Shown: positions 26,422 to 56,312 of the stretch, in pieces
How the letters are laid out: each line of letters starts with the position of its first letter
How positions within the stretch are numbered: the stretch's first letter is position 1
Origin: a bacterium
GTDB lineage: Bacteria; UBA8248
Assembly: GCA_963692865.2 (NCBI GenBank)
Contig: OY843592.1
Coordinates: 32,001-96,000, forward strand
DNA length: 64,000 bases
Direction of reading: 5' to 3'
The notes under the pieces: generated by a model
What the model was told of the DNA's origin: nothing
Databases searched by the model: none
What the model saw: only the letters and a program-made list of their open reading frames with translations
Made by a program: the position numbers and the translations under genes

Positions 26422-26920
26422 GGGCTGTTGAAAGAGCCCCCTTTGGTCGGGATTGCGGTTGCAGCAGGGACAACCACGGAGGGTTCGGACAACCCCTCTT
26501 CGGGGTTATCCCTGCTACACGCCTCGTTCGGGTGTCGGCGTAGGGGCCGCATATCATGCGGCCCGTTGTCGGAGGGCGAAAAAGGCCGGGTCGCATGATA
26601 TGTCAGACATACAACACCATCTTGAATAACAACCGTAGAGGCGCTTCGTGAAGCGCCCGTTTTTTTTCCGGGGTGAGGCGTTGATGAACGCCCCACGTTC
26701 GCGAACGGCCCCTACGGGAGCATCACGTCGCCGGCCGGGCAGCGAGCAACCACTCCCCCCTTGAGGGGGAGTCAACGCGGCAAGGACAATGTCCGCAGCC
26801 GCGTTGGTGGGGGGAGATTTTTCTGTGGCATGTCCCCCCACCGGTTCAGCCTTTGCACAAAACGCTCGGCTTCACCGTCGGGCATTCCCCTCGGGATGCC
26901 CGACCCTCAAGGGGGGAGTG
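26422..26920. repeat. Mosaic REP/MITE-like cluster
   Basis: GGGCTGTTGAAAG end, GTAG-type palindromes and CACTCCCCCCTTGAGGGGG...CCCTCAAGGGGGGAGTG (26751-26920), an inverted relative of 13860-14031. Confidence 0.8.
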
Positions 26921-27303
26921 ATTCCCGTCGCCATACAGCCTCACCCACGCATTTCCCCGCATTTCCTCTTCCCCCTCAAACCCCGCCCTGCGCTATCGTG
27001 CGCGCGACGCGGGGAAACGGTTTCTCCCGCATCGGTTGGAATGAAAAGGGTGGAGGGCTTCTCATGGATTCAGGTGCAGGGGCGAAATTGAAGACGGCGA
27101 ATCTTTTTTATGTGCTCGGAACTCTCCTGTCATCGCTCGGTCAGATTCGACTTCTTCGGCTGGAACGGATTCTCGCTCCTTGCCCGGGTTTCACCGCCGG
27201 AGGGGTAGCGCCGGCGGGTTCAGGGAAACGATTGATAATGAAAATAATGATATTTTGTATAAAATTGGGAATTATATACGAAAGTGCCGAAACGGGCCGA
27301 TCG

Positions 27304-27474
27304 CTACCGCTCCTTGGGGATTCTCACATGTTTGACGTTTACGTCTTTGGCCAAGGCCTTGACGGCTTGCTCGAACGTCGCATCCACCCGCAGGTCGGCT
27401 TCTAGTTCCGCCTTGCTCGGCTGGTAGGTTGGTTCGGCCACCTCGACGGTGGGGCGGTCGGGTTTCTTGCTCAT
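27304..27474 (-). CDS. Small hypothetical protein (56 aa, YQPSKAELE motif) at the IS end
   Basis: SD GAGGAG and a TATACT -10 upstream; ends about 10 bp inside the left TIR. Confidence 0.7.
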   Translation of the reverse strand: MSKKPDRPTVEVAEPTYQPSKAELEADLRVDATFEQAVKALAKDVNVKHVRIPKER

Positions 27475-27545
27475 GGCATTCTCCTCACGGGCAAAGTATA
27501 GCGCGTGTAATGAAAATTCGCCACCGCTTTCATGGCTGGCCGCCC

Positions 27546-27899
27546 CTAGTCGCATTTCCGGTCAGTGTTTTTGTGGAAAAACCACCATGTACTGTTGTCG
27601 GCAAACCGCATGTTCCTATTGCCGGTCTTCGGCACCTCCAACACCTGCCGCCAGAATACTTCTTTGCCATCCACGTACATGTGGAGGCCGCCAAACTCGA
27701 ATTTCCATTTGCCCGTCGCCTTAAGGGCGCATGTAACTTTGTTGTACAGCTTCATGCTCCGGTCTTCGTAAAGCCACAAGATGCTGTTCTTCGTAAACCA
27801 GATACCGGTTAAGTCGGCCTTGGATATGCGGGCCATATCGTAGCCGTGGGAAATGGAAACCGAACCTGCCAGCAACAGAACCGCCAAGACGTAGCGCAT
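27546..27899 (-). CDS. Putative secreted small beta-rich protein (IS passenger)
   Basis: Signal peptide MRYVLAVLLLAGSVSISHG, LTGIW...ATGKW pattern and SD GGAGGGG. Confidence 0.65.
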   Translation of the reverse strand: MRYVLAVLLLAGSVSISHGYDMARISKADLTGIWFTKNSILWLYEDRSMKLYNKVTCALKATGKWKFEFGGLHMYVDGKEVFWRQVLEVPKTGNRNMRFADNSTWWFFHKNTDRKCD

Positions 27900-27922
27900 G
27901 GCCTACCCCTCCGCAAATTGAA

Positions 27923-28225
27923 AATGGCGGTGGGGCGTGCTACCAATGATGATGCAACTCCAAGTTGTAATGGTGGCACGCTCCACCATTGCGGGAGTCT
28001 CGGCGGCCACCGAGGCTCCCGCGCTTTTCTATCATCAATTTCCTTGGGATATGAGGAAGTGCCCCGACCTACCCAAAGAGGCCGGGCCTTGTCGTTACCG
28101 CACAGAGAGTGTGGGAACCCCGCTTATTCGCCTTTCGCCTGGGGAGCGACCCCGGGCCTGAATCAAGGCTGTTTTATTCGGCGAGAGACCCGACTAAGGC
28201 ATCGGGTTCTCCTGCGGTAACGACA
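27923..28225. ncRNA. Candidate structured non-coding RNA(s) inside the IS
   Basis: Perfect 13-bp inverted repeat (28090-28102 / 28213-28225) enclosing several hairpins, a 17-bp stem (27929-27987) and a 13-bp terminator-like stem (27991-28022). Confidence 0.5.
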
Positions 28226-28231
28226 TCGCAG

Positions 28232-28311
28232 ATTGTAATGGAAACAGAACGCAAAATACAACCGCTAAATCGGCGGGGGCAATTGACAGCATCATTCCGA
28301 TTTGGGATCAT
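28232..28311. promoter_or_regulatory. Divergent sigma70-like promoters within the IS
   Basis: Minus strand TTGTAT-N18-TACAAT (28261-28232). Plus strand TTGACA-N17-GATCAT with a TG extension (28283-28311, weak -10). Confidence 0.45.
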
Positions 28312-28502
28312 TATCGAACATTCGAAGTGGCCACTAGGACGCCAAGAGGCCGGGCCCCAGCCCAGCCTCTTGGTAAAACGGTGGCCCCGTAGCCAACCGT
28401 GGTAGGGACGCTACGGGAGCAGAAAAACAAGCCTCTCAACGATACGCTGCTCCCCAGCATTTTGCAAGCGTCCCTGCCCTTTACTTACGGAAGGGCCGTA
28501 AA

Positions 28503-28739
28503 ATGACGCTTGCTCTTGAAGAAGTGCTCTGCCACCTACCAGAACGAGATCAAAGGAAATTCATCAACCTGCCAGAGGCGAATCGCAACGAACTGCGCGC
28601 CTACATTATGGCATCCGAACGCCTGCCGAGGTCGGCTTCCGATCTGTTTTTGGCACCCGGCACGGTATCGGGTCCAGCCGTAGGCCGAACAAGGGAAGTG
28701 GTGCGTGGAAGGGTAGAAACAACCCCGATTACGATATGA
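28503..28739 (+). CDS. Hypothetical protein (78 aa) convergent with the transposase
   Basis: ATG preceded by GGAAGGG; the 3' end overlaps the transposase stop. No recognisable motif. Confidence 0.35.
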   Translation: MTLALEEVLCHLPERDQRKFINLPEANRNELRAYIMASERLPRSASDLFLAPGTVSGPAVGRTREVVRGRVETTPITI

Positions 28740-29685
28740 GGTCGCGGTAGCGTAGCCGCTTGCCGTTCATGCCATCGCTCATGGCGATGATCTGGTCAAG
28801 CGTATCCAGCGGGCGGATGTTATGCCGCCCCGAAAACTCCGCAACATACCTGTGCAGATGCTTCTGGCTGATCTTGTGGAAGGTGCCATGGTAGCCCCGC
28901 TTTAGTACGGCCCAAAAGCTCTCGATGCCGTTCGTATGGGCCTGCTCTTTCACGTATTCCTTGGCGGAGTGCTTTACGCTTTCGTGCTTGTATTCCCCGC
29001 CGTAGCCATAGCCCAGATGGACGTAGCCCCGGTTCTCGTCGGTAAACAGCGTGGCCCCCGGAGCAACATTCTGGCGAACGAACTGCTTGATCGTTTCGCC
29101 CTTGCCGTCCTCAAGAACCCCGGCCTTTACCCGTCCGGTTTCACGTTCCTTCGCGCCGATGACCGCCACCTTGCCCACGGGGCCGCGCCCTTCCTTCACA
29201 CGCTTGGATTTCGGCTTGTTCTTATCCAGCCCTCCAAAATAGCTTTCATCACATTCCACCGCGCCGGTAAACATACCGCCGTCCGCCTCCAACGCCTTGC
29301 GCAACCTATGGGCCATGAACCACGCGCTTTTTTGCGTGATACCGAACTCCCGGTGTAGCTTCATGCTGGATACGCTCTTGAGGCTGGTGGTGAACATATA
29401 GGTGGCAATCATCCAGTCCTGAAACCCGATCTTGGATCCTTCCATGACCGTGCCCGTCTTCGCGCTGAACCGCTTGGCGCATTCCTTCTCCCGGCACCTG
29501 TACGGCATGGTCTTGTGCTTGGCGCCCGTCTGGACGTTAAGCGACCCGCAGTGCGGGCAACAGATGCCCACGGGCCAGCGTTGCTTCACGAACCATGCTT
29601 CGGCGGTTTCATCGTCAGGGAACATGCGGAAAATCTCTTTGGTGGAAATGCCTTTTCTGTAGTGCTTGCCCGGTGCTTTACCCAT
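28729..29685 (-). CDS. IS1595-family DDE transposase
   Basis: Zn ribbon CPHC...CREKEC, HTH (SSMKLHREFGITQKSAWFM), ECDESYFGG, TDE, HTNGIESFWAVLKR and YVAEFSGRHN. Confidence 0.95.
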   Translation of the reverse strand: MGKAPGKHYRKGISTKEIFRMFPDDETAEAWFVKQRWPVGICCPHCGSLNVQTGAKHKTMPYRCREKECAKRFSAKTGTVMEGSKIGFQDWMIATYMFTTSLKSVSSMKLHREFGITQKSAWFMAHRLRKALEADGGMFTGAVECDESYFGGLDKNKPKSKRVKEGRGPVGKVAVIGAKERETGRVKAGVLEDGKGETIKQFVRQNVAPGATLFTDENRGYVHLGYGYGGEYKHESVKHSAKEYVKEQAHTNGIESFWAVLKRGYHGTFHKISQKHLHRYVAEFSGRHNIRPLDTLDQIIAMSDGMNGKRLRYRDLIS

Positions 29686-29713
29686 CGTTTTCTCCCTTTG
29701 CCATCATGGGAGA

Positions 29714-29761
29714 ATAATACTACAAAGTGCCGAAAATGTAAAGCGGGTTTCGGCACTTTCG
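29714..29761 (-). promoter_or_regulatory. Transposase promoter overlapped by two internal TIR-core copies
   Basis: TTTACA-N17-TATTAT (29742-29714). AAAGTGCCGAAA (29724-29735) lies in the spacer and inverted TTTCGGCACTTTCG (29748-29761) lies just upstream. Confidence 0.75.
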
Positions 29762-29963
29762 TGGAAAAATTTCTCAATGTGTTGCATAATCCACAACATT
29801 CTATAATTATTGCGCTAGGATATGTCTCTTGGTCGACTGAGGTGATCCGACCCTAAATTTTCACCGGAGGGACAAATCTATCTGGCGGAAATCGCGCAAT
29901 AAACAGCATTGAAGCGGAAACCAATCAGAAGTCTCAAAAGGAGAATAGATAGGAGATGAGCCG

Positions 29964-30239
29964 ATGCCCATTTTCGCTGTCGCTTTAGGAGAGCGTAACA
30001 ACGAAATAAAAAAAGCTATAGAGAAAGCATATCCCGATGAACATCATGAACTTCAAGACATGTTTTTCCTTATACAAGACCCTGCCAGCGCTAGAGACGT
30101 AGCCGTGAAAATAAGATTGCGAGGCGATAATCAAGTTGAGGATGCGAATGGCGTAGTCTTCAAAATTAACAGTGCATACGCTGGATACACATACAGCGAT
30201 TTGTGGGATTGGCTTGAAAATGCTGAGGGCAAAGAATGA
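29964..30239 (+). CDS. Hypothetical 91-aa protein (possible Cas2/VapD-like ferredoxin fold), IS passenger
   Basis: SD AGGAG, low GC, C-terminal YAG...WDWL pattern. The fold assignment is inference only. Confidence 0.65.
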   Translation: MPIFAVALGERNNEIKKAIEKAYPDEHHELQDMFFLIQDPASARDVAVKIRLRGDNQVEDANGVVFKINSAYAGYTYSDLWDWLENAEGKE

Positions 30240-30481
30240 ATGCCAGAAATGAATTAGAAGGAAAGGTGGGTGAGCTTGATGTAGTACAACTTGAGAAGCG
30301 CTTAACGGAATTAGCAACACGCGCAGAAACTTATGCTACCGAGAAAGATATTTCTGACCTAAAGACCCTCATTGAGAATAAAACCTCAAGCTTGCAAAGA
30401 TGGGCCATCGGCGTCCTTATTACTGCGTGTATCACTACCACCATCGCCTTGATACGGCTATTTTCTATCCCTAGCAATTAA
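30236..30481 (+). CDS. Coiled-coil protein with C-terminal transmembrane helix (DUF1640/CCDC90-like), IS passenger
   Basis: ATGA overlap with the upstream gene; ATEKDISDLK...LQRWAIG motif followed by a hydrophobic helix. Confidence 0.65.
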   Translation: MNARNELEGKVGELDVVQLEKRLTELATRAETYATEKDISDLKTLIENKTSSLQRWAIGVLITACITTTIALIRLFSIPSN

Positions 30482-30741
30482 ATGGGCTTGAATTAACCCA
30501 CTCACCTTTTCGGCACTTTCGTATATAATTCCCATAAAATTGGATAAATTCACGGGGTTTTTCGATAAATTGATGAAAAGATTACCTCCTGTAATTGATT
30601 GTAATAAAAGGAGTTATTACATAAATCTCAGCGCGCCGCACTCAGATATGGCGGTAAAAAAAGTTTTCCGGCAACCCCGCATTTCCCCGCAACAGCCCGC
30701 ATTTCCCCTCGCGCCGCATCACATCGGCAACCCCCCTCCCC

Positions 30742-30931
30742 GGGGCTGTTGAAAAAGCCTGTTCCGGGGTCGGGCGGACACACAGGTCCGCCCCTACGTT
30801 TCGTTTCGCAGAGGTTGGTAGGTCAGACATATCATGCGGCCCGCTTTGTGGAGGCGAAAATCAGGGCCGCATGATATGCGGCCCCTACGGTGAGATCCCG
30901 ACCGGCCCGCAAGGGCTTTTTCAACAGCCCC
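30742..30931. mobile_element. 190-bp MITE-like element with perfect 18-bp TIRs enclosing REP palindromes
   Basis: GGGGCTGTTGAAAAAGCC (30742-30759) and GGCTTTTTCAACAGCCCC (30914-30931). Confidence 0.7.
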
Positions 30932-50304: not shown

Positions 50305-50381
50305 TGGTGGGTCGCCGGGGAATCGAACCCCGAACCCACGGATTAAGAGTCCGTTGCTCTGCCTAGTTGAGCTAGCGACCC
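50305..50381 (-). tRNA. tRNA-Lys(CTT)
   Basis: Cloverleaf GGGTCGC..GCGACCC, anticodon loop CT-CTT-AA, TTCGA T-loop, encoded CCA. Confidence 0.96.
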
Positions 50382-55955: not shown

Positions 55956-56032
55956 TGGCACGCCCGGTAGGACTCGAACCTACAACCTTCGGATCCGAAG
56001 TCCGACGCTCTATCCAATTGAGCTACGGGCGC
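55956..56032 (-). tRNA. tRNA-Arg(TCG)
   Basis: Cloverleaf, anticodon loop CT-TCG-GA, CCA end. Confidence 0.95.
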
Positions 56033-56090
56033 GCGATATCCGTCGGTCTTGTTCGGAAGCCGGCTTCCGAACAAGAATGCGTAAACGCCG

Positions 56091-56167
56091 TGGGGTGAGT
56101 GAGGGGATTTGAACCCCCGACCTCCGGGGCCACAACCCGGCGCTCTAACCACTGAGCTACACCCACC
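56091..56167 (-). tRNA. tRNA-His(GTG)
   Basis: Cloverleaf with G-1, anticodon loop TT-GTG-GC, discriminator C and CCA. Confidence 0.96.
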
Positions 56168-56235
56168 ATGCCTTCATTCCTCTCCCCCGCGGTGGCCTCG
56201 CATACGGGGAGAAGGGCGACGCGATTTCCCAAAAA

Positions 56236-56312
<77 letters not shown>

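Follow-up and report, generated by a model that had tools for sequence, protein, structure and literature searches.

sRNA-Xcc1 is an RNA of Xanthomonas campestris that occurs in integron cassettes, transposons and plasmids, and the title of a 2011 paper by Chen et al. calls it trans-acting. It is described as an 88-nucleotide (nt) RNA that was confirmed by Northern blotting and whose ends were mapped (PMC2996969), as a family that entered Rfam 11 by community submission (PMC3531072), as lying upstream of symE in the same orientation in integron cassettes of Xanthomonas (bioRxiv 10.1101/2025.06.18.660453), and as having seven homologues in Xylella (PMC12189769). Its role is poorly defined in these sources, in terms of predicted targets and control by HrpG/HrpX only. 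Here, we analyzed a locus in a 64,000-nt stretch of bacterial DNA (contig OY843592.1 of assembly GCA_963692865.2, positions 32,001 to 96,000; the whole stretch is hereafter called the window) that carries an apparently sRNA-Xcc1-related RNA within a transposon of the IS1595 family.

An 8-bp target duplication is typical of the IS1595 family, which includes passenger-carrying groups. Leaders of the riboswitch or attenuator type, such as the trp-type attenuator and the second-messenger riboswitches that precede diverse envelope genes, are built from strands that pair either 1:2 and 3:4 or 2:3. A first-pass annotation of the window, made from the letters alone, had proposed at the locus a discrete noncoding RNA or regulatory leader that it could not assign to a known family. 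On balance, we lean towards a reading in which the conserved, sRNA-Xcc1-related RNA in the IS1595-family transposon is likely the promoter-proximal 5′ leader of an exported-protein cargo gene and probably switches between two folds.

A Conserved Structured RNA on the Minus Strand

The minus strand from 28225 to 28081 is a conserved structured RNA, as indicated by covariation among its homologues. A BLAST search revealed one copy in the genome of the window, and 6 of 100 related genomes had homologues; when these were aligned, the outer stem differed in sequence in every copy yet remained complementary, and two blocks were near-invariant. A 25-position IUPAC pattern of the first block matched at least 86 stretches in contigs taken from one genome per species, and the matches listed included metagenome-assembled genomes (MAGs) titled Nitrospirales, Alpha- and Gammaproteobacteria, Chloroflexota, Longimicrobiales, Rhodothermales and Acidimicrobiia. 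In all, 99 homologues from the window's genome, its genus, and MAGs from at least six phyla were aligned. In 77 of the 93 unique copies, a simple scan identified an outer stem, P1, with 8 or more contiguous bp, mostly 15-20 bp long, and the covariance model R1 was built from these 77 copies. R1 recovered all 99 loci searched. In the window, it matched 28223-28081 on the minus strand only (92.4 bits, E = 2.5e-20), in agreement with the orientation that the first-pass annotation had deduced.

Standard pairs were formed by 92.6% of the 3,464 cells of this model-fitted alignment, compared to 70.9% in column shuffles and 33-49% when partners were slid. Cells changed on both sides numbered 741, compared to 209 in the shuffles, and none of the 500 shuffles reached the observed values. 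Compensatory change was heaviest in P1, where all 15 family pairs had changed on both sides and 96.5% and 89.5% of the cells were paired. In P2, 83.2% of the family cells were paired, and column 28 was G in all six copies in which column 76 was C. P3, P4 and P5 were paired in 97.1%, 99.3% and 94.4-94.6% of the cells, respectively, with both-side changes in each (99 copies). Thus, the structured RNA proposed in the first-pass annotation was borne out by the gathering of homologues, the stems being kept by compensatory change with column shuffles as the control.

Near-invariant positions were also found outside the stems, namely in the GAAUA/GAAUA loops, an sAACA bulge, a GUAGCU loop and the tail, although the columns of the search pattern are invariant by construction and part of the apparent invariance stems from that pattern. 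A covarying, conserved fold was therefore accompanied by conserved unpaired nucleotides, as in an aptamer. A short subtype in the window's genome lacked P5 and retained the core of P3, loop and P4.

The window copy itself is strongly folded: the 212-nt stretch around it has a fold energy of −84.4 kcal/mol (z = −3.66), which none of 200 shuffles equaled. A sigma-70-type promoter motif lies at 28261-28232 on the minus strand, where the −35 element TTGTAT (28261-28256) and the −10 element TACAAT (28237-28232) are separated by an 18-nt spacer, in agreement with the first-pass annotation. From this motif, transcription is predicted to start at about 28225-28223; the P1 arm begins seven bases past the −10 element. 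The RNA, which we term an extended sRNA-Xcc1-like leader on the basis of the R1 hit and the covariation, extends on the minus strand from the 5′ strand of P1 through the conserved tail GGCCCGGC.

P1 is formed by the 5′ strand at 28225-28208 and the 3′ strand at 28108-28090, which are complementary, paired in the predicted fold and covarying, and it consists of 13 bp, a bulged G at 28103, and then 5 bp. Its outer arm UGUCGUUACCGCA (28225-28213) is fully complementary to 28102-28090, as had been stated, and is extended by GGAGA (28212-28208) pairing with UCUCU (28108-28104). Inside P1, the P2 hairpin (28207-28188) comprises ACCCGAU (28207-28201), the loop GCCUUA, and GUCGGGU (28194-28188). The covarying core (28185-28119) follows. 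It contains P3 (CUCGC 28185-28181 with GCGGG 28123-28119), an internal loop between P3 and P4 in which GAAUA (28179-28175) faces GAAUA (28129-28125), the bulge AAACA (28174-28170), P4 (GCCUU 28169-28165 with AAGGC 28134-28130), and P5, which consists of P5a (GCC 28157-28155 with GGC 28139-28137) and then GGGG (28153-28150) with CCCC (28144-28141).

The tail AGGCCCGGC (28089-28081) can pair either with GUCGGGUCU (28194-28186) or with a downstream strand. The latter pairing gives hairpin H (28086-28063), in which CCCGGCCU (28086-28079) pairs with AGGUCGGG (28070-28063), with no U-tract after it. Two extra hairpins, GGGAGCC...GAGACUCCC and GGUGG...CCACC (28022-27968), are present further downstream in what would be a long 5′ untranslated region (UTR); hairpin pairs like these recur 3′ of the RNA in two relatives of the same genus (L003 and L005).

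Most stems of the first-pass annotation were recovered, including ACCCGAU/GUCGGGU and GGGG/CCCC, and so were its two CGAAUAA repeats, which contain the two GAAUA strands of the internal loop. Its UCGCC/GGCGA and GCCU/AGGC stems exist in the window copy but are not kept in the family, where P3, P4 and P5a are conserved instead. Likewise, the start that it gave fits, but the unit reaches 9 nt further, through the tail and on to hairpin H.

Relation to sRNA-Xcc1

At gathering thresholds, Rfam 15 identified only four tRNAs in the whole window and no family at the RNA locus; with the limit relaxed to E up to 10, the hits around the locus were of chance level, for example mir-342, U6 and EBER2. The sRNA-Xcc1 model, RF02221, was the top sub-threshold hit in four of six alphaproteobacterial copies, with 25.7-31.8 bits; its curated gathering cut-off is 53 bits. 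It gave no hit at E up to 10 in the window at 28030-28270, and its best score was 23.5 bits in the window's own genome and 29.7 bits in five other genomes, none being above 53. Since no copy reaches this cut-off, the RNA is a distant relative rather than a member by the Rfam criterion. Judged by the shared architecture and by the sub-threshold hits of its relatives, it is best classed as a distant, 5′-extended relative of sRNA-Xcc1. The statement that the RNA was not assignable to a known family thus holds for the window copy, which the RF02221 model misses, but not for the family, whose closest relative can be named.

In the cmscan alignments, the long-range helix GUCGGGUCG...CGGCCCGGC, P3, the AAUACAA/GAAU loop, P4, and the tail CACC fall on elements of the RF02221 model. 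The same architecture is found in the window, where 28194-28186 can pair with 28089-28081 (9 bp) and is followed by P3, the loop and P4. The two RNAs thus have in common a closing helix, G-Y-C-G-G-G-Y-R with Y-R-G-C-C-C-G-R-C, that is stacked directly on P3, itself GC-rich; an internal loop with AAUACAA.A opposite GAAU; a P4 hairpin at the distal end; and a 3′ tail C-A-C-C past the helix. Both are carried on mobile DNA, the window copy lying within an IS1595-family transposon with a target duplication, and both are upstream of and co-oriented with a gene and are multi-copy in some genomes.

However, the family of the window differs from sRNA-Xcc1 in having ~31 extra nucleotides at the 5′ end, which form a 15-20-bp P1 together with P2, both competing with the closing helix. 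A P5 branch is added in most copies, the U-tail is absent, and the downstream genes are mainly those of exported proteins, not symE. The predicted layout of the locus is accordingly not that of a discrete RNA of ~88 nt with its 5′ end at the closing helix and a U-rich tail; the predicted start lies ~31 nt upstream, at P1. We found no published description of this extended family or of its link with IS1595 in a search of titles and abstracts. What is new in this window is that the RNA is carried as transposon cargo.

Promoter Position and Downstream Genes

An exact TTGAC starts 34-41 nt before the start of the RNA model in 53 of the 99 copies, with a peak at −36/−37, compared to 4 of 91 control slots. 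A promoter with TTGAC at −41 to −34 would place the transcription start on the first base of P1. The TTGTAT of the window is located at −38, so that the promoter of the first-pass annotation agrees with the position seen in the family.

On the other side of the RNA, a Shine-Dalgarno (SD) sequence with an open reading frame (ORF) of at least 40 aa was found within 8-260 nt downstream in 88 of the 99 copies. The median distance between RNA and ORF was 41 nt, and it was 20-60 nt in 68 of the 88. The encoded proteins were biased towards export: by crude heuristics and against crude controls, a hydrophobic N-terminus was found in 61 of 88 downstream proteins, compared to 70 of the 479 remaining ORFs at these loci, and a lipobox-like motif in 27 of 88, compared to 32 of 479. 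Pfam hits were obtained for 31 of the 68 downstream ORFs of at least 90 aa. TbpB_B_D (7), CsgG (4), OMP_b-brl (3), HTH_3 (3) and Rhodanese (2) were the recurrent families, and LpoB, IAT_beta, RTX metalloprotease, SNase, T5orf172, methyltransferase, GT25, TM2 and DUF732 were single cases. Of the two options that the first-pass annotation had left side by side, the regulatory leader fits these data better, with SD and ORF in 88 of 99 copies and a U-tract behind the hairpin in only one of 85, and the discrete noncoding RNA fits less.

In the window, the cargo gene (27899-27546, minus strand) would encode a protein of 117 aa whose N-terminal segment, MRYVLAVLLLAGSVSIS..., resembles a signal peptide, according to the ORF translation. 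The protein had no match in Pfam, and the protein atlas gave weak lipocalin-like leads only, at 0.86-0.89. As a separate observation, the leader RNA in one alphaproteobacterial MAG (L091, 393-477) lies behind a co-oriented tRNA gene and begins ~40 nt past it.

Mutually Exclusive Helices

RNAalifold twice favored a long-range helix in which GUCGGGUYR, that is, the 3′ strand of P2 and two further bases, pairs with YRGCCCGRC, the tail strand located 1-3 nt past P1. This alternative helix comprises 9 bp, each of which is paired in 95-98% of the 99 copies, and it shows covariation at columns 78-257 and 79-256, next to P3. At columns 79/256, C was the partner of G in 63 of 68 copies, U that of A in 12 of 24, and A that of U in 4 of 7; 81 cells paired, compared to 63 expected from a naive permutation. 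The alternative helix and P2 share five bases and are therefore mutually exclusive; both show covariation. The tail also pairs with the next 45 nt, forming a hairpin in 85 of 98 copies with a median of −20 kcal/mol. Simultaneous formation of P1 and the closing helix, as a pseudoknot, seems geometrically unlikely, since no more than 1-3 nt would connect the outer end of P1 (15-20 bp) with the tail.

This arrangement resembles riboswitch and attenuator leaders in several respects. The structured leader is promoter-proximal; four strands (the 5′ strand of P2, GUCGGGUCR, the tail, and the 3′ strand of H) can pair 1:2 and 3:4 or 2:3; the conserved unpaired core suggests a binding site; and many copies per genome precede varied surface-protein genes. 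In contrast to those leaders, the 3:4 hairpin has no U-tract, no leader peptide is present, no SD masking is detectable, and a very long P1 encloses strands 1 and 2, strongly favoring one state. Thus, the 5′-UTR geometry and the exclusive helices of a riboswitch-type layout were observed, but neither a terminator nor an SD-masking output.

The IS1595-Family Transposon

The first-pass annotation had placed the RNA inside an IS (insertion sequence), and this location was confirmed. The whole transposon (27267-30533, 3,267 bp) has the termini GGGAATTATATAC... and 30-nt terminal inverted repeats at 27266-27295 and 30505-30534, which are 97% complementary. It is flanked by an 8-bp target-site duplication, ATAAAATT, read at 27259-27266 on the left and 30534-30541 on the right. 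Its transposase (29685-28729, minus strand, 318 aa) is a DDE enzyme of the IS1595 family with an N-terminal zinc ribbon (PF12762, DDE_Tnp_IS1595, E = 2e-39; PF12760, Zn_ribbon_IS1595, E = 3e-06). The transposase, the inverted repeats and the duplication thus place the element in IS1595.

In the orientation of the transposase, the element consists of a ~770-bp region, a palindrome (29712-29762), the transposase gene (tnp), ~470 nt, the promoter and RNA, three hairpins, the ORF of the 117-aa secreted protein, and a small ORF. The small ORF at the transposon end (27555-27304, minus strand, 83 aa, perhaps with an inner Met start) had no Pfam match. It contains the motif YQPSKAELE, which is also present in the last ORF of a related element (G016; L002, oriented 2803-2961), and it may be an accessory gene of this IS lineage. 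The palindrome, upstream of the transposase start, consists of two facing cores of the terminal repeat (AAAGTGCCGAAA ... TTTCGGCACTTT) that form 12 palindromic bp; it could be an operator or the remnant of a second element end.

Similar to described IS1595 elements with passengers, this transposon combines a DDE transposase with a zinc ribbon, short terminal repeats, an 8-bp duplication, and non-transposase genes between the repeats. It differs in that the passenger is a complete module of promoter, structured leader and exported-protein gene, which recurs across several phyla with differing cargo genes. The G016 element (3,036 bp) has the same termini as that of the window and differing cargo ORFs; between the two, the segment from tnp to RNA is 72.6% identical and the RNA stretch 86%. 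The same termini also bound an RNA-carrying element in an alphaproteobacterial MAG (L052), and a different IS1595 element (G022) carries the RNA and a TbpB-like lipoprotein. By tblastn, an IS1595 transposase was present within 2.5 kb in 22 of 95 loci, arranged either as tnp-RNA-cargo or as RNA-cargo facing tnp, and inverted repeats enclose transposase, RNA and cargo in L052, L027, L026 and L018. In L027, a Thalassobaculaceae MAG, the 32-nt perfect terminal repeats (352-383 and 2578-2609) each contain an inward-facing TTGACT; at one end, it is the −35 box of the RNA, exactly 36 nt ahead of it, and at the other end, it is located in front of the transposase. Together, the RNA-carrying IS1595 elements span Nitrospirota, Alpha- and Gammaproteobacteria, and Gemmatimonadota, and in at least one of them the promoter is located within the terminal repeat.

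The DNA directly to the left of the transposon is repetitive (26748-26921, and also 26600-26718 and 26944-27266). A ~170-nt unit has, at 80-90% identity, 37 matches in the window's genome, ~30-50 in 16 of 22 other genomes of the genus, and 5 in a 17th; it looks like a miniature inverted-repeat transposable element or a repetitive extragenic palindromic (MITE/REP-like) element. Because of this repetitive left flank, an empty-site comparison of the insertion is uninformative. To the right of the transposon, 30742-30931 contains nested perfect inverted repeats of 18 nt (30742-30759/30914-30931) and 15 nt (30828-30842/30864-30878). Of the four tRNA genes of the window, located on the minus strand at 50308-50381 and at 55959-56312, three form a cluster that spans no more than 360 bp.

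Copy Number and Distribution

R1 gave 10 hits in the window's genome, including the short subtype. All nine other loci of this genome have a TTGAC-type box upstream, and in five a clear secreted-protein or lipoprotein gene directly follows the leader. Five other genomes contained 23, 9, 6, 4 and 1 copies, respectively, and these numbers are regulon-like. Hits were obtained in 20 of 22 other genomes of the window's genus, 0 of 19 genomes from other genera of its family, 2 of 7 genomes of one other family, and none of the remaining ~100 relatives. In the family of a Rhodobacter-like carrier, the RNA was found in 2 of 140 other genomes. Such a patchy, multi-copy spread is as expected for horizontal gain. 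Among PLSDB plasmids, BLAST gave no match for the element or for an alphaproteobacterial copy, and IMG/VR contigs contained no exact match to the pattern.

Many titles of carrier records belong to MAG series that we take to be sponge-microbiome sets. SB066x and PNG bins are tabulated among sponge-associated Poribacteria in one source (PMC7883664). We dropped a strict claim of sponge specificity, as habitat was deduced from MAG names only, among the matches listed.

Discussion

In the mechanism that we propose, the first base of P1 would also be that of the transcript, which would thus carry a blunt stem at its 5′ end. In fold A, P1, P2 and hairpin H (the tail with the downstream strand) would form. 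In fold B, the 3′ strand of P2, GUCGGGUCU, would pair with the tail AGGCCCGGC as in sRNA-Xcc1 and stack on P3, which would release both strands of P1 as well as the 3′ strand of H. An effector bound to the conserved GAAUA/GAAUA-P3-P4 core, or hindered formation of P1 during transcription, could shift the balance of the folds, and the shift may change the stability, continuation or translation of the cargo mRNA. The transposon would carry promoter, leader and gene as one unit, and movement as a unit would explain the patchy, multi-copy, cross-phylum spread. More tentatively, and only as a doubtful extension, the RNA might be a mobile sensor, that is, a two-state leader that answers a signal, possibly from the host environment, by switching on sets of surface and secreted proteins and that IS1595 elements would have spread, as a finished module of promoter, sensor and gene, between unrelated phyla sharing a habitat.

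Several points count against this two-fold leader. Fold B is much the less stable fold in silico: it has −60.6 kcal/mol in the window copy, compared to −80.8 kcal/mol for fold A, and the median gap in 71 copies is 18 kcal/mol. Switching would therefore require a strong effector or kinetic control. Attenuation by an intrinsic terminator was rejected for this set, since the hairpin formed in 85 of 98 copies was followed by a U-run in only one of the 85. SD masking was also rejected as the output in this data set; in minimum free energy folds of 71 leaders, the SD was mostly paired in 36 when folding was free (fold A) and in 35 when the closing helix was enforced (fold B), and it had no consistent partner. 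The ORF of the window begins 190 nt past the RNA, not ~40 nt, and the downstream genes are diverse, with HTH regulators, a methyltransferase and a nuclease, unlike those of most metabolite riboswitches. In addition, pairing is somewhat inflated because the pair counts come from a model-fitted alignment, and the start, the end and the expression of the RNA are predictions.

One alternative is an sRNA-Xcc1-like reading, in which the RNA is a stand-alone trans-acting small RNA that has its own promoter and ends at or just past hairpin H, with the gene behind it unrelated or merely read through. The closest relative is an 88-nt Northern-detected RNA with mapped ends (PMC2996969), which as a discrete RNA also speaks against a leader. 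The window RNA has its own promoter motif and is separated from the ORF by 190 nt and two more hairpins, a strong hairpin lies downstream in 85 of 98 copies, and 11 of 99 copies have no downstream ORF. Nevertheless, no U-tract accompanies hairpin H in 84 of 85 copies, and the SD and ORF follow at a tight distance (68 of 88 within 20-60 nt), which leaves no space for a separate promoter. The exported-protein bias of the downstream genes favors a link in cis, and a common seed for pairing in trans is lacking in P1, whose sequence is different in each copy. We therefore regard a stand-alone RNA as unlikely.

Another alternative is a constitutive, portable expression module that senses nothing, in which the blunt P1 shields the cargo mRNA from 5′-end-dependent decay, promoter and translation start work in many hosts, and the sRNA-Xcc1-type helix is a remnant. 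The promoter placement that would start the transcript at the first base of P1, the −35 box within the terminal inverted repeat of L027, the transposons that carry the module into several phyla, and the lack of any SD-masking logic in the 71 leaders would all suit such a module, as does the greater stability of fold A. However, near-invariance of ~50 nucleotides that are unpaired or in the core, as in the GAAUA/GAAUA loop, the sAACA bulge and the GUAGCU loop, would be superfluous for a simple stem, and so would a tail that covaries with the P2-P3 linker; moreover, the short subtype retains exactly this core while losing P5. This makes the passive module quite an unlikely account, slightly below that of the small RNA.

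That the RNA serves the transposon itself, by regulating expression of the IS1595 transposase or as a cofactor or guide for transposition, we consider very improbable. The transposase within 2.5 kb in 22 of 95 loci from several phyla, the conserved element termini, and the higher conservation of the RNA than of the rest of the element (86% versus 72.6%, window versus G016) fit this idea. In contrast, 73 of the 95 loci have no IS1595 transposase nearby. Of the ten copies in the window's own genome, only that of the window is known to be in this IS, the other nine loci not having been searched for transposase, and those nine all have the usual promoter, five with a secreted-protein or lipoprotein gene after it. 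The position of the RNA relative to tnp is variable, either upstream or convergent, and P1 is hypervariable, with no match to the element ends noticed, although they were not compared systematically. The chance is equally slim that the locus is a self-cleaving ribozyme or a structure acting on single-stranded DNA, such as a retron msr/msd-like element or a recombination site. The junction of several helices, which has conserved unpaired bases and may include a pairing of the pseudoknot type, the many copies linked to mobile elements, and the long terminal inverted repeat, which resembles the a1/a2 arms of retrons, bring such structures to mind. However, Pfam identified no reverse transcriptase domain among the seven neighboring ORFs, and the downstream genes of the homologues encode envelope proteins; Rfam gave no known ribozyme family even at E up to 10; and the fixed geometry from promoter to RNA and from RNA to ORF, as well as frequent G-U pairs with a defined strand, fit an RNA.

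We thus continue to prefer the two-fold leader of an exported-protein gene. sRNA-Xcc1 has been in Rfam since 2012 without a settled function, and the locus analyzed here appears to belong to a much larger, 5′-extended branch that the Rfam model misses and in which the sRNA-Xcc1 fold would be one of two competing conformations. Placed before genes whose products are exported or at the surface, and present in as many as 23 copies per genome, this branch offers a testable handle on the function of the sRNA-Xcc1 superfamily. If the RNA does not sense a signal, it would still be a compact expression leader, independent of the host and used by transposons for the genes they carry. If it does, it would be a regulatory element whose regulon is being assembled by transposition across phyla.

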